From Candidatus Velamenicoccus archaeovorus (GTDB taxonomy: Bacteria > Omnitrophota > Gorgyraeia > Velamenicoccales > Velamenicoccaceae): a stretch of 32,000 bases of DNA. Every line of letters begins with the position of its first letter. The first letter of the stretch is position 1. Below are positions 1 through 11,832 of the stretch, piece after piece. The notes below the pieces were generated by a model, which saw only the letters and a list, made by a program, of their open reading frames with translations, made no database searches and was not told the DNA's origin. The translations under genes were made by a program, and so were the position numbers. The stretch lies in contig NZ_CP019384.1 in the NCBI RefSeq assembly GCF_004102945.1, positions 1,500,001 through 1,532,000 of the forward strand, given 5' to 3'.

Positions 1-32
1 CAAAGGGTTAGCGGTACCCAGTCATTTACCAA

Positions 33-875
33 TTATTTAGAACTGTAATGATTTACAGTATAGGAAAGGATGGAACCAATAATATCCATATTATTTCTAT
101 CATTAAACTGGATTAGCCTCGGTTTTGATCGATTGTTTTCTGAAAACTGCATTCCGTCGGCATAAAACTGAATATCCAAAATTTTATCCAAGTTAGTCGC
201 AAAAGATTTTCTATCACCCCGAAATATAAGTCTTTTGCTGGAAAATATTAATTCCCCGTCACTCGTAGAAACATTTCCTTTTTCCACAACAGGATATCCT
301 CTGAAGCCGCCTACGCGATAACTAACCCCTTTCATCACTCTGAAGCTAAGCCCACTGTACCCGCCTTCGTAGTGCCTGCTCAAAACTTTTTCTTCCAACA
401 AAGAAGCGGGCTCTGACCAATATACCTGTTCCCCCTTCTTTAGAACGATATTTGCGATTTGTAGGGTTGGCATATTGCCGTTCTGGATCTCTCTCACCAG
501 GCGATATCTAGCAAGTATCTTCTTTTTAGCTTCGATTAAATCATCACTCAGATTTAATTCTTTCTGAATATTGTTCAGCTCTTTTTCTTCCTCTTCTGTA
601 AGAGTTGAATCGTCCACTGCCTTATTAAAGGCGGCCATATAAGCATCAATCTTTGCAACCTTTATATCTTCGTCATTAAGGCATAGCTCTGATTTTCTGC
701 TTTCAATTTGTTTTATCTCTTCCGCTGTTAATTTACCGTCCGATGCCAGCTGTATCATCTCATCTTTCAATAACTGAATATTTACTTCCTTCTTCAGTTG
801 GGCTTCTTTTTCCTGTTTTCTTTGCTCGGCAATCTGTTTCCATTCTTCAATCTTCTTCTTTATAAATTGAAGCAT
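33..875 (-). CDS. hypothetical protein: N-terminal K/E-rich coiled coil with two TerB-like helical repeats, C-terminal beta-rich bPH/GRAM-like module (tentative)
   Basis: ORF track 33..932 opens on a TTG. The first ATG (875, MLQFIKKK...) lies 6 nt after GGGGAGG, so I place the start there. Repeats: ASDGKLTAEEIKQIESRKSELCLNDEDI and VDDSTLTEEEEKELNNIQKELNLSDDLI. A Gly-rich beta region follows: GGYSGLSFRVMKGVSYRVGGFRG...GELIFSSKRLIFRG. Lies in the AT-rich segment. Domain names come from motif memory only. Confidence 0.7.
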   Translation of the reverse strand: MLQFIKKKIEEWKQIAEQRKQEKEAQLKKEVNIQLLKDEMIQLASDGKLTAEEIKQIESRKSELCLNDEDIKVAKIDAYMAAFNKAVDDSTLTEEEEKELNNIQKELNLSDDLIEAKKKILARYRLVREIQNGNMPTLQIANIVLKKGEQVYWSEPASLLEEKVLSRHYEGGYSGLSFRVMKGVSYRVGGFRGYPVVEKGNVSTSDGELIFSSKRLIFRGDRKSFATNLDKILDIQFYADGMQFSENNRSKPRLIQFNDRNNMDIIGSILSYTVNHYSSK

Positions 876-993
876 GCCATGCCTCCCCTGAGTCAGAGCT
901 ATATCTCTTGATCGAAGCTCGGCTTCAATCAAATCTCACAGACCACTTAACCAAATCGTGATTATCTGAATACCATTTATTTCTCATAAATAT

Positions 994-1734
994 TTATGTC
1001 AAAGGGTTATTGGTGCCCGGTCCATCGTTATCTCGTTGATCAAAATGTGCTTTAATTCTTCCTATCGACTCTTTTATCTCCTTTCGATCATGGAAATCAA
1101 TGAGTAATTTATAGCTCATAGCATTTGTCTCCAGAATATAAGCAATTTTTTGGAGTTCGCCTATTAATGCGTAAAATTTTTCAGATCTAGAATTGAAATT
1201 TTCAATTCGTTTTAAATATTCATCGAATATTTCAGTCGCCGCTGCTCTAATCTTATCACCTTCTACAAATTCTTTAATAGCTATACAAAGATCATACTCG
1301 TAAAAATTAGTTGATTCTTCCACGAGAATAAAAAGATGCTGTGCCTGTTCGTAAAATATCCTACCATCTTCGCCTGTTAAAGAAAAAAGCTTATAAAAAG
1401 GAAGAGAATATAAAGACTCTTGTTTCATTCTCAGAAATCTTAAGGGAGAATAATCGTCTGATGATAACTTTATCCCAGTAGCCTGTTTTTCTTTGAATAT
1501 TTTTAAAATACGCAAAGAATGAGCGAAGTTTTCTCTAAAAATACCAAGCGCATGTTCAATTCTTTCAATCAGAATATCAATTCCATGTTCCAAATATCGC
1601 TTAACAATCTGCTCATTTTCTCTCTGAACCAAATACTGTCTCCGCCAAAACAAATACGCAAAAAATGCAGGAATTAAATATTTAACTACCTCTGCGCTCC
1701 AATTCCCTAAAAAAACAAGCAGTCTTTCTTTCAT
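994..1734 (-). CDS. hypothetical protein with one N-terminal transmembrane helix, otherwise all-helical; no family recognised
   Basis: ATG at 1734 is preceded by GGAGG (about 7 nt spacing). Hydrophobic helix VVKYLIPAFFAYLFW near the N-terminus. AT-rich codon usage matches its two neighbours. Confidence 0.7.
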   Translation of the reverse strand: MKERLLVFLGNWSAEVVKYLIPAFFAYLFWRRQYLVQRENEQIVKRYLEHGIDILIERIEHALGIFRENFAHSLRILKIFKEKQATGIKLSSDDYSPLRFLRMKQESLYSLPFYKLFSLTGEDGRIFYEQAQHLFILVEESTNFYEYDLCIAIKEFVEGDKIRAAATEIFDEYLKRIENFNSRSEKFYALIGELQKIAYILETNAMSYKLLIDFHDRKEIKESIGRIKAHFDQRDNDGPGTNNPLT

Positions 1735-1822
1735 TGTTTAACCTCCAAAATCTATGCTAACAGCTCGAGGTCTCGCATCAGTTGAATTTCAATTTATGGC
1801 TTAACTAAAAAAGGTTTTCCGT

Positions 1823-2482
1823 TTATAGTACACATTTGATCTTAGTTCCTTTCGTATAAAACCTAGATCCTGGAGACACTCTAGTATTTTTTTTGCGAAC
1901 TTCTTCTCGCAGCCTTGTGCCTCGAGACAAAGATTTAAGATTATCCGGGGTGAGCTTTTCAAAATCTCTCATATGTGCAATAATTCTTAGACTCAAATAT
2001 AATGCTTTTTCAATTTTACTTTCATCCCCCAACTTTCTCTTTAGGCCAAGATGAATATTTTTTACCCAAGCTTCAGATTTTAAAATAGTTATCAAGCAAT
2101 CCCCTAATCCCTTATCTATACTATAATCGTAACGACTATATTCTAACCTCTGAATTCCTCTTATGTCCGCTGGAACTTCTAAGGCACGTTTTGTATTCAG
2201 AAGAATGTAATATTTTTTATTGCTGATTTTCCTTATCCCCTCGCTCAACCCTAATTCAAGCGTTACATTTGGGTTCCAACTAGATAAATCAAAAATTGAA
2301 TAGTCTGCTTCATTAATATGCTTCTTGAGGATTTGCAATAAATGCTTGGTTTCAATATCTGTATTTGCATAGACAACATTAAAAGGCAAATCTTTAAATA
2401 GCTTCCTGACCTTATTCACTGGAAATCTTTGACGAAATGGATGCCCTACAAATACCCTAGGCAATCTCATACGAACTTTCAT
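1823..2482 (-). CDS. nucleoside 2-deoxyribosyltransferase-like / TIR-like Rossmannoid domain protein with a basic helical C-terminal tail
   Basis: ATG at 2482 is preceded by GGAGG. Strand-helix layout: RVFVGHPF ... FNVVYA ... ADYSIFDLSSWNPNVTLELGLSEG ... YYILLN. This matches the NDT/TIR-like fold signature (first strand plus the NVxxELG acidic motif). First gene of the AT-rich cassette. Confidence 0.7.
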   Translation of the reverse strand: MKVRMRLPRVFVGHPFRQRFPVNKVRKLFKDLPFNVVYANTDIETKHLLQILKKHINEADYSIFDLSSWNPNVTLELGLSEGIRKISNKKYYILLNTKRALEVPADIRGIQRLEYSRYDYSIDKGLGDCLITILKSEAWVKNIHLGLKRKLGDESKIEKALYLSLRIIAHMRDFEKLTPDNLKSLSRGTRLREEVRKKNTRVSPGSRFYTKGTKIKCVL

Positions 2483-2551
2483 AAATATACCTCCAGCTAT
2501 CTTGCTTTTAAAAATAGTGTCTAATTATTTTCAACAAATTTTGTCGCCTAT

Positions 2552-2772
2552 ACAGGTTTAAGCGAAACGAAGTGAAGCGATTCCTTATTTACCTCCCTCT
2601 CCCCAGAGGCACGAAGAAAATCACGGATGAGGCGAGGATTGATTCAAAGCAGGACGTTTGCAGGCCGAGCGGGCGTGGTTGTCCGAAGCGCAAGATGAGG
2701 ACGAGCGAGGCCGAAACTCGAGCGCAGATTTGCCACGCTGGGGCAAATCAAGCGTTCCTGCGTGAATCAATC
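2552..2772. repeat. intergenic repeat element, copy A: 28-nt head plus about 138-nt imperfect hairpin
   Basis: The head caggtttaagcgaaacgaagtgaagcga (2552-2579) matches 5937-5964 at 24/28. Hairpin arms are ggattgattca..gcaggacg..tttgc (2635-2660) and gcaaa..cgttcctgc..tgaatcaatcc (2743-2772). The interior shares agcgcaag / gagga / gagcgag strings with copy B. Confidence 0.6.
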
Positions 2773-2800
2773 CGAGCCGAATAATTCTATACTGTAAAAG

Positions 2801-2831
2801 AAAACGCCCTGAATTTATCAGGGCGTTTTTT
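2801..2831. terminator. bidirectional intrinsic terminator
   Basis: Sequence aaaacgccctga-attta-tcagggcgtttttt. The stem is flanked by an A-run on one side and a T-run on the other, so it can terminate transcripts on both strands. It lies downstream of nrdJ in the minus direction. Confidence 0.7.
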
Positions 2832-2885
2832 GGATTCGTTAGTCAGATTCGGATTTCATAAAAAATCCGGGTTAGATTGTCAGGT

Positions 2886-3046
2886 CATTATCCCGACGCT
2901 TGCCTTCGGCAAGGTCGGGATTAATTCGGCCAAATCGGTTTATTTCTCATTAGTCCCTCGCCCCTTATCAGAATATTTGCTGGGGGCTCGGGATTAATTT
3001 GCGCAAATCATTTACGTCGCGCGTTGCGCTGCCGTAAATGATGCGC
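2886..3046. repeat. three consecutive hairpins 3' of nrdJ; the first two are paralogous units with a conserved base and tail
   Basis: Unit 1 is attatcccgacgcttgcc-ttc-ggcaaggtcgggattaat (2886-2922) and unit 2 is attagtccctcgcccc...gggggctcgggattaat (2949-2996). Each is followed by the tail attaattNNgcNcaaatc; the 12-mer tcgggattaatt is exact in both. The third hairpin is gcgcaaatcatttacg...cgtaaatgatgcgc (3001-3046), directly after the nrdJ stop codon. Confidence 0.6.
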
Positions 3047-3049
3047 TCA

Positions 3050-5353
3050 TTAGCATTTCGTATATCCGCAAGCCGAACACTTGACGCAGCCTTCTTCGTG
3101 CCTCACCACGCCGCCGCAATCGGGGCAGACGCCGACGATATTTCCCGTGATGTGCTTTTCAAGCTGTTCTTCGCTCTTGGAGACCTGACTGTAGAGCTCT
3201 TCGCTCATCTGGTCGATGGCGGCAGCGACCTTGGCTTCGGCCTTGGTCTCTATCTTGTCGTTGACCAGGCGGCGCTCGATGACGCGGGCGATGGCGTCCG
3301 CGCAGGAGAAGATGCGACAGCCCTTTTCCCACGATGGGGACGGGCAGCGGATGGAACGGAGCTGTTCGATGATGACCTTGACGTCAACGCTGGAACGCAG
3401 CGCCAAAGACACCAAGCGACCGATGGCTTCCAGCTGGGAGGCCGCGCATCCGCCTGCCTTACCCATCGACATAAAGACTTCGAACGGACGGCTGTTCTCG
3501 TCCGTATTGATCGTGACATACAGGTTGCCGCAGCCGGTCGAGACCTTGGTCGTCGTGCCCATGACGACCTCGGGCCTGGGCCTGGGGCCGATCTTGCCTT
3601 CGGCGACCTGTTTGTCTTTCTTTGTATCTTTTGTGCCGACGCTCAAGACCTGCTCGGAACGGCTCTTGTCGCGGTAGATGGTCAAACCCTTGCAGCCCAT
3701 CTCGTAGGCGAGCATGTAGGCCTTGCGCACGTCGTCGATCGACGCGTCTTCGTGGAAATTGATGGTCTTGGAGACCGCATTATCCGTGAATTTCTGGAAG
3801 ACGGCCTGCATCTTGATGTGCCATTCGGGCGTGATATCGTGGGATGTCACGAACGCGCGGCGGATATCCTCCGGAACTTCCTTCATCTCCTGGACAGAGC
3901 CTTTTTCGGCGATCTTTTCCATGAGCTTGCGCGTGTAAAGCCCCTTCTCCTCCATCACGTCCTTGAACGCGGGCTCGACCTCGATCATCCTGGCGTTATC
4001 TAGGACGTTGGCGCGCTGATAACAGAGCGCGAACATCGGCTCAATGCCGGAAGAACACGGCCCGGCGATGATGGAGATCGTGCCTGTGGGCGCGATGGTG
4101 GTGAGCGTCGCGTTGCGCAGGCGCAGGTTGCTGGCCTCAAAAATGCTGCCCTTATACGCCGGGAACGTGCCCCTGGCGCGCGCCAAGTCCAGAGACTCCT
4201 TGCGGGCCTCGGCCTGGATGAAGGACATGACCTTTTCCGCCAGGGCAATGGCCTCGTCGGAATCATACGGGATCATCATCTTGGCCAGGGCGCTCGACCA
4301 GCCCATGATGCCCAAGCCGATCTTGCGGGTCTGCTTGGTCATCTTGTCGATCTGGGAAAGGGGATACTTGTTGACGTCGATGACGTTGTCCAAGAAGTGG
4401 ACGGAAAGATGGATGATCTCTTTCAACCTGTCCCAGTCGAACTCAAACTTGCCGTCAGCCTTTTTGAGGAGCGCGTAAAGGTTGATGGAGCCGAGGTTAC
4501 AGCTCTCAAAAGGCAACAGCGGCTGTTCGCCGCAAGGATTGGTGGATTCTATCTTACCTAATAATGGGGTGGGATTGTTGTTGTTGATGCGGTCGATAAA
4601 GATGATGCCGGGTTCGCCGTTCTTGTGGGCCATTTTGACCATGAGCTCGAAGACCTCTTTGGCCTTGAGCCGGTGGACGGCCTTGTGCGTGTTGGGGTCG
4701 ATCAAGTCGTATTCTTCGTCTTTGGTGACCTTGCGCATGAAATCTTCCGTCACGGCGACGGAAATGTTGAAATTATTGATCTCCTTGTCGTTTTCCTTGC
4801 AGACGATGAAGTCCATGATATCCGGATGGTCCACGCGCAGGATGCCCATATTGGCGCCGCGCCTGGTGCCGCCCTGCTTGACCGCCTGGGTGGCGGCGTC
4901 AAAGACTTTCATGAAGGAGACCGGGCCGGAAGCGATGCCGCCCGTGGAACGCACGGTCGAAGAACGCGCCCGCAGGCGCGAAAAGGAAAATCCCGTGCCG
5001 CCGCCCGACTTGTGGATGAGCGCGGTGAACTTGATGGAATCGAAAATGCTGTCCATCGAATCTTCAATGGGCAGGACAAAACAGGCGGAGAGCTGGGAGA
5101 GGTCGCGGCCCGCGTTCATCAGGGTCGGGGAGTTCGGCATAAACTCCAGGTTCTCCATCATCGTGAAAAATTTGTGTTCCAGAGCGGCGATATCGTCCTC
5201 GGTCTTGCGATAGAGGCGGTCGGCGGCCGCAATCGCCTTGGCCACGCGGGTGAACATCTCCTGAGGGGTCTCAACCACCTTGCCGTTTTCGTCTTTTTTA
5301 AGGTAGCGTTTTTCGAGGACTTTGAGGGAGTTTTCGGAAAGCTTTAGCGCCAT
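3050..5353 (-). CDS. nrdJ: adenosylcobalamin-dependent (class II) ribonucleotide reductase
   Basis: 767-aa ORF. N-terminus LSENSLKVLEKRYLKKDENGKVVETPQEMFTRVA. Catalytic-core strings NPCGEQPL and TIAPTGT. C-terminal Cys cluster CPDCGG...CVKCSACGYTKC. AAAGGAGAGG lies 6 nt before the ATG. Confidence 0.92.
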   Translation of the reverse strand: MALKLSENSLKVLEKRYLKKDENGKVVETPQEMFTRVAKAIAAADRLYRKTEDDIAALEHKFFTMMENLEFMPNSPTLMNAGRDLSQLSACFVLPIEDSMDSIFDSIKFTALIHKSGGGTGFSFSRLRARSSTVRSTGGIASGPVSFMKVFDAATQAVKQGGTRRGANMGILRVDHPDIMDFIVCKENDKEINNFNISVAVTEDFMRKVTKDEEYDLIDPNTHKAVHRLKAKEVFELMVKMAHKNGEPGIIFIDRINNNNPTPLLGKIESTNPCGEQPLLPFESCNLGSINLYALLKKADGKFEFDWDRLKEIIHLSVHFLDNVIDVNKYPLSQIDKMTKQTRKIGLGIMGWSSALAKMMIPYDSDEAIALAEKVMSFIQAEARKESLDLARARGTFPAYKGSIFEASNLRLRNATLTTIAPTGTISIIAGPCSSGIEPMFALCYQRANVLDNARMIEVEPAFKDVMEEKGLYTRKLMEKIAEKGSVQEMKEVPEDIRRAFVTSHDITPEWHIKMQAVFQKFTDNAVSKTINFHEDASIDDVRKAYMLAYEMGCKGLTIYRDKSRSEQVLSVGTKDTKKDKQVAEGKIGPRPRPEVVMGTTTKVSTGCGNLYVTINTDENSRPFEVFMSMGKAGGCAASQLEAIGRLVSLALRSSVDVKVIIEQLRSIRCPSPSWEKGCRIFSCADAIARVIERRLVNDKIETKAEAKVAAAIDQMSEELYSQVSKSEEQLEKHITGNIVGVCPDCGGVVRHEEGCVKCSACGYTKC

Positions 5354-5886: not shown

Positions 5887-5936
5887 CCAGACAAACCTGT
5901 TTTTTTAATGAGCCGACTAGGGCACCTCATCATATT

Positions 5937-6066
5937 CAGGTTTGAGCGAAACGAAGCACAGCGAAAGAATATGTTTCACCAAATCATGGCCGGTCTTTTT
6001 GGAGCGAATTGGACCACAGCGCAAGCGAGGACCAGTTGAGCGAGAAAAAGACCGGCCATGATTCCC
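5937..6066. repeat. intergenic repeat element, copy B: 28-nt head plus perfect 19-bp-stem hairpin
   Basis: The head caggtttgagcgaaacgaagcacagcga (5937-5964) matches copy A at 24/28. Stem aatcatggccggtcttttt (5983-6001) pairs perfectly with aaaaagaccggccatgatt (6048-6066). The 46-nt loop is rich in AGCGA/AGCGCAAG motifs. Confidence 0.65.
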
Positions 6067-9021: not shown

Positions 9022-10413
9022 TTAGCCGAAGACCGGAAAAAACAAGAGAATCGCCCACACCAACCCTGTCGTGAGTAGGCCGATCACAAGGCCGATTTTG
9101 AGCCAATCCAAAAATCCGATCTTGATATGTTTCTCTTTTTCCAGGATGCCGATGGCGACGATGTTGGCCGTCGAACCGATCAAGGTGATGTTGCCGCCCA
9201 GACACCCCCCGAACAAAAGCGCCCACCAAAACGCCTCCATCCCCTTGCCCAGCGCATGAAAACTGTTGATGATGGGGATAAAGGCGACAACGATGACGAC
9301 GTTGTCCATGATGCTGGAGCCGATGGACGAAAACCAAAGGATCAGGCCCAGGAGGACATCATGGCTGCCGCGCGCCAGATGGATCATCCCCTGCGCAAAG
9401 ACATCGGTAGCGCCGGTGTGTTGAAGGGTGCCGGCCTGGGCGAAAAGGAACATAAAGAACAACAGCGACCACCACTCGACGTCTTTTTCGACGAATTCCC
9501 GCGCCTTGTGCCACTTCCAGATCATGATGAAAGCCGATATGATCAACGGGATCGTCAACAAAACCGCATTGTTTTCCAGATGGAAGAACAGCTCAATACG
9601 GTGGCTAACGGTGATCAGAAAGACCGTTAGTCCCAAGATAAAGAGGCTGATCTTAAGCTCACGCGCCAGGGGCACGGAGATCAGACGGATCAGGATCTCG
9701 TTGGCGCCGAGCTCCTTGATCTTTTTGTCGAACTCATTGAGTTTTTTCCTGTACCAGAAGTCGAAAACGATGATGGTCACAGCCAGGCAGACGACGGACA
9801 AAGGCAGGGCCTTCACCAGGAAATCCTCGGCGGTCAGGCTGGACTTGGTCGCGATCAGGATACCGATGGGATTACCCAGGACGGTCGCGGCCGAGCCGAT
9901 GTTGGTCGTGAAGATCGAGATGATGACGTACGGCAGAGGGTCGACCTCGAAATAATCGCATATCTCCAGGATGGCCGCGACCATGAAGATAATGGAGACC
10001 ACCTCACCCGTCGTCGCCGACAGCACCGCCGAAAAAAGCGATATGGCGATCACGAACTTCCTGGCCGTCAAGTTGCGCATCTTTAAGATCAACTCGACGA
10101 CCCAGGCGAAGAAGCCGGCGTCTTTCATCAATCCGACGATGATCATCATGCCGACCAGAAAAAGAATCACTTCCAGCGAGCTGAACCTGACCAGGTGCTC
10201 GATATCGATGGTCCGGGTCAAGATCAGGATGGACGTCCCCAGAAAGGCGAAACTAAGGCGGAACTCCCAGAAAAAAAGCGTGCCGCAGATGGACGCCGTA
10301 AAAATCCCCAAAGACAGCGCCTGCGCATGACTCATGCCCGCCCGGCTGCTCACCGTACTGACCAGGATGGATGCGGCGATAAGCGTAAGAAATTTAATGA
10401 ATGCCGTGCGCAT
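9022..10413 (-). CDS. ArsB/NhaD-superfamily (CitMHS/SLC13-like) anion permease, paralog 2
   Basis: 463-aa polytopic protein, clearly paralogous to 10429..11832. Shared strings include FFWEFRLSFAFLG, KDAGFFAW, FMVAAILEICDY, TNIGSAATV.GNPIGILIATK and GGNITLIGSTANIVAIG. GGAG lies 8 nt before the ATG. Confidence 0.8.
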   Translation of the reverse strand: MRTAFIKFLTLIAASILVSTVSSRAGMSHAQALSLGIFTASICGTLFFWEFRLSFAFLGTSILILTRTIDIEHLVRFSSLEVILFLVGMMIIVGLMKDAGFFAWVVELILKMRNLTARKFVIAISLFSAVLSATTGEVVSIIFMVAAILEICDYFEVDPLPYVIISIFTTNIGSAATVLGNPIGILIATKSSLTAEDFLVKALPLSVVCLAVTIIVFDFWYRKKLNEFDKKIKELGANEILIRLISVPLARELKISLFILGLTVFLITVSHRIELFFHLENNAVLLTIPLIISAFIMIWKWHKAREFVEKDVEWWSLLFFMFLFAQAGTLQHTGATDVFAQGMIHLARGSHDVLLGLILWFSSIGSSIMDNVVIVVAFIPIINSFHALGKGMEAFWWALLFGGCLGGNITLIGSTANIVAIGILEKEKHIKIGFLDWLKIGLVIGLLTTGLVWAILLFFPVFG

Positions 10414-10428
10414 GCAAGAACTCCGACG

Positions 10429-11832
10429 TCAAATCTTAAACGTGCAGCAATAATTCTTCAGCAACAACATGGCCCAGGCGACCATCGTCGTCACCAGACC
10501 GACGGTCAAGCCGATACCGAACCAGTCCCTGAACCTGATGCGGATGTTTTTTTCCTTTTCCAACAGGCCGATGGCCACGATGTTGGCCGTCGAGCCGATC
10601 AGGGTGATGTTGCCGCCGAAGCATCCGCCCAACAAAAGCGCCCACCAGAGCGGCGGCGCGCCGTAACCCAAAGTAAAAAAGCTCTTAATGATCGGCACGT
10701 AGGTGACGACGATGATGACATTGTCCAGAACGCTGGAACCGATGCTGGAGCTCCACAGGACGAACGCCAGGAGCCCTCCAGGGTTGTTTTTGGCAAAATC
10801 GGCGAACAGCCGCGCAAAGACGTCGGTCGTGCCGGTATGCCGTAGGGTCCCGGCCTGCGCAAAAAGGAGCATGAAGAACAAAAGCGTCCACCATTCGATG
10901 CCGCGCTCGACGTATTCGCGCGCCTTGTGCCGCTTCCAGACCATGATGACGCCGGCGGTGAGCATCGGCGCGATCAGAAGGATCGTGTTCTCGGTCAGGC
11001 CCAAGAGCACCTCCAAGCGCCGATGGAGGACGATCGTGACCATCATGACGCCGAAGATGGTCAACGACGACTTCAGGTGCCGGTCCATGGGCACGGAGAT
11101 CAGCCTCAAAAGGATATCATCGGCCCTCATCTCGTCGATATGCCGGTCGAATTCCGTGATGGCGCGGTTGTACCAGCGAAAAACGATCAGGATCGTCACC
11201 AGAAGAGCGACGAGCGCAATAGGGAATGGCGTCAGGAGAAAATCCTCGAAGCTCATGTTCGCCTTGGTCGCGATCAGGATACCGATGGGGTTGCCCATGA
11301 CCGTCGCGGCCGAACCGATATTGGTCGCCAAGACCGAAATGATAATGAACGGCGTCGGGGTTACCTCGTAATAATCACAGATCTCCAGGATCGCCGCGAC
11401 CATGAAGATGATGGACGTCACTTCGTCCACGGCGCAGGCGAGCAGGCCCGAGATAACCATGACCAAAAACGTGAACTTCTTACCGGAAAGATTTTTGGCC
11501 CTGAGGATCAACGCGACCAGCCACGCGAAAAACCCGGCGTCCTTGAGCAGGCTGACGACGATCATCATCCCCGCCAAAAACAGGATCACGTCCAGGGACG
11601 TCAATTTCAGAAAACTGTCGAGGTCGATCGCCTTGGCGACCAGAAGCAGGCCGGACCCCAAAAATGCGAAACTGAGCCGGAACTCCCAGAAAAAAAGCGT
11701 CCCCATGATGGACGCGACGAAGATGGCGAGCGAAAGAGCCTGGTGCGCATTCAGGCCACAGGCGTGGCTCATGAGGCCCGAGGCCACGGAGACAAAAAGA
11801 AGACCGCCGAATTTGAGGACGATTTTTTTCAT
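10429..11832 (-). CDS. ArsB/NhaD-superfamily (CitMHS/SLC13-like) anion permease, paralog 1
   Basis: 467-aa polytopic protein. Its start ATG overlaps the CBS gene stop (ATGA at 11829-11832). Confidence 0.8.
   Translation of the reverse strand: MKKIVLKFGGLLFVSVASGLMSHACGLNAHQALSLAIFVASIMGTLFFWEFRLSFAFLGSGLLLVAKAIDLDSFLKLTSLDVILFLAGMMIVVSLLKDAGFFAWLVALILRAKNLSGKKFTFLVMVISGLLACAVDEVTSIIFMVAAILEICDYYEVTPTPFIIISVLATNIGSAATVMGNPIGILIATKANMSFEDFLLTPFPIALVALLVTILIVFRWYNRAITEFDRHIDEMRADDILLRLISVPMDRHLKSSLTIFGVMMVTIVLHRRLEVLLGLTENTILLIAPMLTAGVIMVWKRHKAREYVERGIEWWTLLFFMLLFAQAGTLRHTGTTDVFARLFADFAKNNPGGLLAFVLWSSSIGSSVLDNVIIVVTYVPIIKSFFTLGYGAPPLWWALLLGGCFGGNITLIGSTANIVAIGLLEKEKNIRIRFRDWFGIGLTVGLVTTMVAWAMLLLKNYCCTFKI

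Follow-up and report, generated by a model that had tools for sequence, protein, structure and literature searches.

Genes and features of the locus

We analysed a window of 32,000 nucleotides (nt) from the chromosome of Candidatus Velamenicoccus archaeovorus (contig NZ_CP019384.1, positions 1,500,001 to 1,532,000), which starts with an AT-rich islet carrying three genes, here named g1, g2 and g3. All three are encoded on the minus strand, and 6-7 nt before each ATG we find a GGAGG motif (plus-strand CCTCC at 2490-2494 for g1, 1742-1746 for g2 and 882-886 for g3). Co-directional genes with such Shine-Dalgarno sites had already been described in an earlier reading of the sequence (the original prediction), which interpreted the genes as one acquired conflict or defence cassette. 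It also stated that none of the trio is a housekeeping gene, which we confirm. The coordinates of all features are provided in Table 1, where positions are those of the window.

Table 1. Features of the islet and its right-hand surroundings.
Feature	Position	Strand	Remark
AT-rich, compositionally foreign islet	1-2545		identified by content of guanine plus cytosine (GC) and GC at third codon positions (GC3); cut by the left edge of the window
g1: TIR/NDT-like Rossmannoid, helical stalk, winged-helix-like C-terminus (predicted)	1801-2482	minus	two frames via +1 insertion
A8 tract (plus-strand T8) at the g1 frameshift	1887-1894	minus	sole homopolymer of at least 8 bases in the islet
Promoter-like site upstream of g1	2484-2512	minus	consensus match only; site count not above that of shuffled sequence
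g2: 246-aa protein with hydrophobic N-terminal segment	994-1734	minus	no family annotation
g3: 280-aa protein; long N-terminal helix, TerB/Tic110-like helical repeats, C-terminal PH-like (GRAM/CheF-like) beta-sandwich (predicted)	33-875	minus	AlphaFold2 model and Foldseek
11-bp hairpin between g2 and g3, without T-run	908-932	minus	DNA fold of 876-1025, z = -2.29
23-nt direct repeat (family D9), copy 1	1000-1022	plus	overlaps the 3' end of g2
23-nt direct repeat (family D9), copy 2	1-23	plus	10 nt past the g3 stop, at the window edge
32-nt direct repeat (element A), copy 1	2549-2580	plus	abuts the right edge of the islet
32-nt direct repeat (element A), copy 2	5933-5964		beyond the ribonucleotide reductase gene
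Class II ribonucleotide reductase gene	3050-5353	minus	neighbour of the right end of the islet

The islet differs strongly from the remainder of the window. Positions 1-2545 show a GC content of 35.4%, compared to 55.2% for positions 2546-32000, and in windows of 300 nt the GC fraction stays within 0.31-0.43 as far as position 2550. The same picture emerges from GC3, which is 0.295 for g1, 0.263 for g2 and 0.388 for g3, while the window's 17 other long open reading frames (ORFs) range from 0.56 to 0.81. That is, the AT-rich segment reported for the window edge is well supported. The sharp GC switch at its right end, which had been placed within some 20 nt, is also real but not confined to so short an interval. 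Here, GC climbs in two steps: around positions 2545-2590 it goes up from some 33% to 44-51%, with a maximum-likelihood change point at 2591, and a level of at least 58% is reached only from about 3040 on, as the sequence enters the class II ribonucleotide reductase gene. A repeat at the switch had been noted as well, and the 32-nt element A indeed starts at position 2549.

Because of its foreign composition, the islet is very probably acquired DNA. At the boundary of the islet, neither ARAGORN nor Rfam (at gathering thresholds) reports a tRNA, a tmRNA or another known RNA, and a permissive Rfam scan of 2450-3060 returned noise only. We consider it more likely than not that an un-ameliorated AT-rich islet entered the Ca. 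Velamenicoccus archaeovorus chromosome by horizontal transfer and that positions 1-2545 represent its right-hand end, which carries three independent accessory genes with g1 as the only one among them that has a readable mechanism.

Co-occurrence of the three genes

We compared the islet with about 115 loci that hold relatives of its genes. These comprise 22 loci for g1 (19 genome loci and 3 metagenome contigs), 87 for g3 (80 metagenome, 4 viral and 3 further contigs) and 6 contigs for g2; individual loci are denoted by L and a number. Within 10 kb of 20 g1 relatives, tblastn finds neither g2 nor g3. For the g1 loci L112 and L113, blastn with the islet DNA and a Pfam annotation of the genes matched g1 alone and nothing resembling g2 or g3. 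Similar results are observed from the perspective of the other two genes, i.e., neither g1 nor g2 is found near 85 g3 relatives, two further g3 loci share only the g3 DNA with the islet, and a profile search identifies neither g1 nor g3 near the 6 g2 relatives. Finally, an all-against-all clustering of the proteins from 20 g1 loci provides no neighbour family that is conserved around g1.

Since none of the three genes co-occurs with another one in the loci compared, the trio is not supported as a cassette. The original prediction had itself named missing co-occurrence in other genomes first among the outcomes that would speak against its cassette, and zero co-occurrence in about 115 loci is what we find. 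Judged from these comparisons, the trio would represent separate, solitary and patchily spread families that lie side by side here rather than a co-evolved system. In such a setting, both g2 and g3 would be cargo in their own right, apart from g1.

One might still think of a lineage-specific three-gene module for abortive infection, composed of a TIR/NDT-like enzyme (g1), a membrane-associated g2 and the TerB/PH protein g3. We regard such a module as very unlikely. It is suggested by the co-directional and tightly spaced genes (g2 follows g1 by 66 nt, as counted from the conserved-frame stop at 1801, and g3 follows g2 by 118 nt), by the similar foreign composition of all three and by partial matches of g3 to PDC-S48 and of g1 to TIR effector models. 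These features have to be weighed against the zero co-occurrence, against family sizes that are far apart (8 for g2, 133 for g1 and 111 for g3 in the word-index search), against the strong hairpin that separates g2 from g3, against the different neighbours of the closest g3 relatives, whose homology to the window ends at the g3 stop, and against the frameshift in g1. The three-gene system is thus not upheld, which removes a false lead. An assignment of the trio to a PADLOC system was also tried and rejected, since it yields partial domain matches only.

Domains and predicted fold of g1

For g1, the earlier call as an NDT/TIR-like Rossmannoid protein (NDT: nucleoside 2'-deoxyribosyltransferase) proves correct at the level of both profile and fold, while the frameshift within the gene had been overlooked. 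The protein matches the Pfam family PF10137 (CAP12/PCTIR TIR) over profile positions 1-118 of 119 with 27.6-27.7 bits, i.e., above the curated cut-off of 24.7, and the same family is matched by all 33 aligned g1 relatives at E<=0.1. At this threshold, none of the 33 family members matches DUF4062 or TIR_2 in Pfam, nor does the g1 family show a sequence-level match to PF05014. Sequence searches for relatives with solved structures gave nothing meaningful for g1 and g3.

The fold was predicted by an AlphaFold2 (AF2) model of g1 with repaired frame, which has a predicted local distance difference test score (pLDDT) of 81.8 and a predicted template modelling score (pTM) of 0.82. The model consists of three parts. 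At the N-terminus, residues from about 9 to 116 form a five-stranded Rossmannoid. The middle part is made of helices (126-173), among them two long ones at 138-173. The C-terminal residues 179-220 are modelled with a pLDDT above 90 as a unit of three helices followed by two strands, a topology that is predicted to be winged-helix-like.

When the model is compared to the Protein Data Bank (PDB) using Foldseek, the best matches are MilB, DNPH1 and NDTs with E-values from 5e-4 to 1e-2 and a probability of 1.00; TIR-STING is matched, too. The top structural match is MilB, a CMP N-glycosidase (4ohb), with an E-value of 4.6e-4, and for DNPH1 we observe target-normalised template modelling scores of 0.62-0.67. 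Among viral models, Foldseek reports a full-length match (E 2.1e-5) to a giant-virus CAP12-TIR protein of similar length and further matches to viral NDTs.

Within the alignment of 33 sequences, the invariant residues include D60, D65, N72, V73, E76, L77 and G78. E76 is located in the helix 71-76 that follows the third strand (61-65) of the model. In TIR and NDT enzymes, the catalytic Glu is found at such a place, and E76 may be its equivalent. The surrounding motif of g1, D-x-S-x-W-N-P-N-V-x-L-E-L-G, appears to resemble the catalytic-Glu motif of NDT and DNPH1.

Frameshift within g1

The annotated frame of g1 covers 1823-2482 (219 aa) with its stop at 1823, while the conserved frame stops at 1801. 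Compared to homologs of about 225 aa, the last ~25 residues of the window's protein are unrelated to the family, and the conserved C-terminus is encoded by an overlapping ORF at 1801-1962. Both frames can be joined at the A8 tract listed in Table 1. That is, removing one A results in a protein of 226 aa that ends with REEVRKKILECLQDLGFIRKELRSNVYYKRKTFFS directly before the stop codon and is collinear to each of its homologs. In NCBI, the protein BU251_07045 is 99% identical to g1 and bears the same aberrant tail; hence, the extra base is present in the deposited sequence.

An expansion from A7 to A8 would interrupt g1 such that the gene is either off or its product made only through rare slippage. 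This slip can reflect an assembly error, a costly gene that was inactivated recently, or a switch that is leaky or can be reversed. Two g1 relatives are frameshifted as well, one in an Acidobacteria metagenome-assembled genome (MAG; L008, about 10426-10437) and one in an Omnitrophota MAG (L010, about 10165-10168). The break in the latter is located in a short A-run.

These lesions raise the question whether the whole islet could be what remains of a mobile element or foreign DNA in decay, with three genes that are currently useless to the cell. Besides the disrupted g1 and its two disrupted relatives, the aberrant and repeat-encoded C-terminal tail of g2 as well as the un-ameliorated composition would fit such a remnant. 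We nevertheless consider it unlikely, given that g2 and g3 are intact and of full length with all family-invariant residues kept, that canonical Shine-Dalgarno sites are kept in all three genes and that the lesion of g1 is a single-base homopolymer slip, for which sequencing error, reversibility and bypass by slippage are all possible. Pure decay is thus possible for g1 but a poor fit for the intact g2 and g3, and we continue with the reading of the islet as acquired DNA with independent accessory genes.

Distribution and neighbourhoods of g1 relatives

According to the word-index search, the g1 family comprises at least 133 clusters at 90% identity. Its members are scattered over Omnitrophota, Acidobacteriota, Planctomycetota, Lentisphaerae, Chlamydiae and Proteobacteria. 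In each of the 20 loci measured, the GC content of the g1 relative is below that of the host locus by 2-21 points, which is the signature of a gene that arrives repeatedly by transfer. With tblastn, no match to g1 was found in 50,697 phage and 72,556 plasmid records, nor is g1 found in IMG/VR. The only viral sequence signal is a weak match to phrog_3634.

The three closest relatives (67-72% identity) are found in a defence-like context: two of them are embedded in type I restriction-modification (R-M) operons, and the third has an AAA_13 ATPase as its neighbour. In L002, the gene order is hsdS, a 162-aa gene, g1, DUF6978, DUF1828/1829 and hsdR; the hsdR gene looks complete, and a SoFic-like and a TIR_2 gene are located upstream. 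The order in L113 reads hsdM, AAA_14, hsdS, a 155-aa gene, g1 and Schlafen-AlbA_2. In L112, g1 is placed between a 949-aa protein, which provides the AAA_13 match at a level below the cut-off, and a DUF2971 protein. More distant relatives show mixed neighbours, among them IS110 transposases (3), HerA, an HD/dGTPase-like protein and GIY-YIG. With regard to defence, the association of g1 is suggestive only, and this mainly for the nearest clade.

Another type of neighbour relates to deoxynucleotide metabolism. In the window, g1 and the class II ribonucleotide reductase gene are 570 nt apart. NrdR, the repressor of ribonucleotide reductase genes, is encoded 1.4-4 kb upstream of g1 relatives from two unrelated phyla (L006:5717-6172 and L007:8110-8565), while there is none in 614 kb of g3 loci. 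The numbers are small; the proximity of g1 to NrdR and the reductase could mark a site prone to insertions or a functional tie to the metabolism of deoxynucleotides.

Candidate role of g1

A plausible role for g1, and the likeliest among those considered, is that of a stand-alone, single-protein variant of TIR-type phage defence. In the respective mechanism, the winged-helix end would act as a sensor that binds a phage protein or DNA. Sensing would then release or oligomerise the TIR-like domain, and this TIR/NDT-like N-glycosidase domain would hydrolyse nicotinamide adenine dinucleotide (NAD+) or another nucleotide through Glu76 and thereby abort the infection. Composition, domains and folds, the frameshift, the missing co-occurrence and the genomic contexts are results of our analysis, whereas catalysis, sensing by the winged helix and a function in defence are inferred. 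Concerning the conflict or defence role of the original prediction, this leaves a mixed outcome: it is plausible for g1 given the TIR/NDT-like fold, the invariant Glu and the R-M and AAA_13 context, whereas one module with membrane partners does not stand.

The layout of the g1 model is close to that of Swarozyc, for which a mechanism of this kind has been demonstrated in experiments. Swarozyc (KpSwz) is a TIR-like NADase of the DUF4062 type that continues in helical stalks and ends in an AUX domain of helix-turn-helix (HTH)/winged type, by which the phage portal is bound; the system depletes NAD+ and needs both the catalytic Glu and the AUX domain (bioRxiv 10.64898/2026.05.01.722283). Each of the two is a single protein in which a TIR-like domain of five strands at the N-terminus is followed by a helical stalk and, at the C-terminus, by a domain of winged-helix type, where the g1 side is predicted. 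Furthermore, both are spread horizontally in a patchy manner and found beside varied defence genes. The g1 protein, with its ~226 aa, is still no member of Swarozyc because its TIR-like domain is PF10137 and not DUF4062.

PF10137 itself is known from the Cap12 effectors of CBASS and the PycTIR effectors of Pycsar, i.e., g1 matches the TIR-like family of these effectors end to end. Cap12 and PycTIR combine this domain with a SAVED or cyclic-nucleotide-binding sensor or with transmembrane segments and are encoded in operons with a CD-NTase or a pyrimidine cyclase. In contrast, g1 carries a predicted winged helix instead and lacks a conserved neighbour, and no cyclase is found among the g1-neighbour families that are matched by at least two proteins. 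With regard to Thoeris and its ThsB-like TIR proteins, no ThsA effector (SIR2/SLOG or Macro type) adjoins g1 in the window, and again there is no conserved neighbour around g1. Missing a cyclase, a SAVED domain, a ThsA partner and any conserved neighbour, g1 is thus not a component of CBASS, Pycsar or Thoeris. The best structural matches (MilB, DNPH1 and NDT) have the NDT-like Rossmannoid fold in common with g1, which differs from the NDT superfamily by the added stalk and winged helix. The retron Eco1 also uses an NDT-like effector, while g1 comes without a retron reverse transcriptase or non-coding RNA partner.

The nucleotide-related folds allow for a different role. That is, g1 could regulate transcription as a one-component system or serve as an enzyme in the metabolism of deoxynucleotides. 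Its Rossmannoid would bind or hydrolyse a nucleotide and its winged helix would bind DNA to control transcription, comparable to CARF regulators with winged HTH domains or to a nucleotide N-hydrolase like DNPH1 or MilB. The best folds are in fact nucleotide N-hydrolases (MilB, DNPH1) plus NDTs, the reductase and NrdR genes mentioned above are near, and an automatic annotation names one g1 homolog an ArsR-family regulator. From a regulator or a metabolic enzyme, one would expect conserved neighbours or targets and host-like composition. Observed are no conserved neighbour, a GC content below the host's in 20/20 loci, a patchy spread, nearest relatives inside R-M operons and a NrdR association in 2 loci only. 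We consider this role unlikely.

Going beyond a role for the single gene, we tentatively propose that the g1 family is an undescribed single-protein anti-phage system. In this proposal, a PF10137 N-glycosidase would be placed under the control of its own winged-helix sensor, as a second and independent invention of the Swarozyc layout. The family, spread over many uncultured phyla, would travel as a single gene of low GC and settle at variable sites, for instance within type I R-M operons. In Velamenicoccus, which preys on archaea, the slippery A-tract would keep it silent or leaky, possibly as a phase switch. In its full form, with all parts taken together, the proposal is a working idea that we hold to be somewhat unlikely.

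Several points weigh against the interpretations given above. With regard to the independence of the three genes, the islet is cut at the window edge, such that a partner gene further left is possible, and many of the comparison contigs are short. For the architecture of g1, the winged helix is drawn from the AF2 topology and from sub-threshold Pfam winged-helix matches in some members. As for defence, g1 matches no PADLOC system; a TIR effector model is matched only in part, over roughly 45 residues (E 5e-5). The distant relatives are also found beside ordinary genes, i.e., Pirin, RNase J, UPF0047, an amidohydrolase and GNAT. Finally, 3 of 23 g1 copies are frameshifted (the window's, L008 and L010), so the family may often be decaying.

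Next to the TIR effector match, PDC-S35 models (a PADLOC candidate) partially match g1 residues 71-116 with an E-value of about 3e-4. A literature search for PDC-S35, PDC-S48, 8xMP and the BU251 locus tags returned nothing useful.

The relevance of g1 is given by its predicted architecture of PF10137 TIR-like domain, stalk and winged helix, which is compact, widespread, uncharacterised and absent from PADLOC. If the proposed role holds, the Swarozyc principle of a TIR-like NADase gated by a winged helix would extend to a second TIR-like clade, and a defence gene would be added for Omnitrophota, for which experimental genetics hardly exists. The frameshift in the A-tract poses its own question, namely whether it represents an error, a pseudogene or a switch.

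The g2 and g3 proteins

The g2 protein is 100% identical to BU251_07040 and has no match in Pfam, PADLOC, NCBIfam or PHROG. While the word-index search provides 8 homologs, an exhaustive profile search yields 281 cluster representatives, which are mostly stand-alone proteins of 230-260 aa. In one relative, the 8xMP membrane domain (PF24838) is joined on at the N-terminus, which is a hint of a membrane-tethered module, and g2 is probably tethered to the membrane, too. The original prediction of a single transmembrane helix could not be confirmed: a Kyte-Doolittle mean of about 1.6 is the usual level for such a helix, and the best 19-residue mean of g2, found in the N-terminal stretch, is 1.20. 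When aligned to its homologs, the last 9-12 residues of g2 (GPGTNNPLT) are missing in all of them. In one neighbourhood (L110:83-725), the g2 relative is located 1.5 kb from a PIN-domain gene (faint Pfam match) that is followed by a 57-aa ORF, amid ORFan genes. This pair looks like a VapBC-type toxin-antitoxin system.

For g3, the start at the ATG of position 875 is backed by homologs of 280 aa. Its AF2 model (pLDDT 86.9) shows an N-terminal helix of 43 residues, four more helices and a helix-capped C-terminal beta-sandwich, which matches PH domains in Foldseek. Among 24 family members (E<=0.1), TerB (PF05099) is matched by 19 with a best E-value of 5.7e-6, Tic110 likewise by 19, CheF-arch by 8 and GRAM or Vps36-GLUE by a few. 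Given the TerB matches and the PH-like fold, the earlier description of g3 as TerB-like/bPH-like was right for the family, while the window's own protein stays below the Pfam thresholds and shows a sub-threshold Tic110 match only. The PADLOC candidate PDC-S48 is matched partially, with g3 residues 44-151 covering profile positions 239-338 of 411 (E 3e-6). TerB proteins of Ter stress-response and defence systems have the TerB match in common with the g3 family, which also shows the PH-like fold; they differ in that g3 relatives are solitary and found outside of ter operons.

The 111 word-index matches of g3 are plentiful in Patescibacteria and Pacearchaeota and occur in other phyla as well. In low-GC hosts, the GC content of the g3 relatives equals that of the host, while it is lower than the host's in hosts of higher GC. 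The only shared neighbour that results from clustering is a protein of about 500 aa, which is common to 8 of 41 g3 loci and reflects local synteny. For three close relatives (73-90% nt identity), the homology to the window stops exactly at the g3 stop, and the downstream genes differ.

Downstream of the closest g3 relatives we observe a gene of about 192 aa (MSKGLLGYY...), which starts 25-33 nt past the g3 stop (L114:919-1398, L115:1367-1945). It has weak matches of about 30% identity in L028, L029 and L054, and the window shows no such gene. The codons at its start (CAAAGGGTTGTTGG) are similar to the 23-nt repeat of the window, but in opposite orientation relative to g3. Another relative, 89% identical to g3, is followed by a 281-aa ORF (L027:781-1626) with a PD-(D/E)xK-like motif (DLLAV...ILEVKLG), as judged by eye.

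Repeats and hairpins

The two copies of the 23-nt repeat are identical in 19 of 23 positions and bracket g3. The copy at 1000-1022 encodes the C-terminal tail of g2 that has no counterpart in the homologs. By our own estimate, about one repeat of this strength is expected by chance per 2.5 kb, i.e., it is statistically weak on its own and suggestive by its placement. The pair could be the scar of a g3 insertion. Between the two copies, the hairpin at 908-932 could serve as a transcript-end or processing signal.

Since the motif is found after both g2 and g3, an integron-like array comes to mind, in which promoterless ORF cassettes are each followed by a recombination site. The compact arrangement of co-directional and unrelated ORFs, each solitary elsewhere, would agree with such an array, as would the GTTRRRY-like heptamers that can be read by eye in the spacers. 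Yet the g1-g2 spacer lacks an attC-like fold (z = +0.35 and +0.54, i.e., no better than shuffled sequence), the g2-g3 spacer provides an imperfect stem only, and no common motif follows g1. In addition, Phage_integrase is absent among the top 25 Pfam families of the g1 neighbourhoods (matched by at least 2 of 149 neighbour proteins), a list that a lone match would escape, and the repeat is of a strength expected by chance, as given above. We judge an integron-like array to be highly improbable and retain the reading of three genes that are independent of each other.

The copies of element A are 84% identical, and its 20-mer core has 2 matches compared to 0.01 expected. The pair brackets the class II ribonucleotide reductase gene together with its long leader. 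Element A could be a repeat that is dispersed across the genome, or it could mark a hotspot of recombination. Finally, a strong GC-rich hairpin with A-runs and T-runs on its flanks (aaaacgccctgaatttatcagggcgtttttt) is located at 2797-2830, about 220 nt downstream of the reductase stop. It is absent from the list of a simple terminator scan, while its sequence looks like that of a bidirectional intrinsic terminator.

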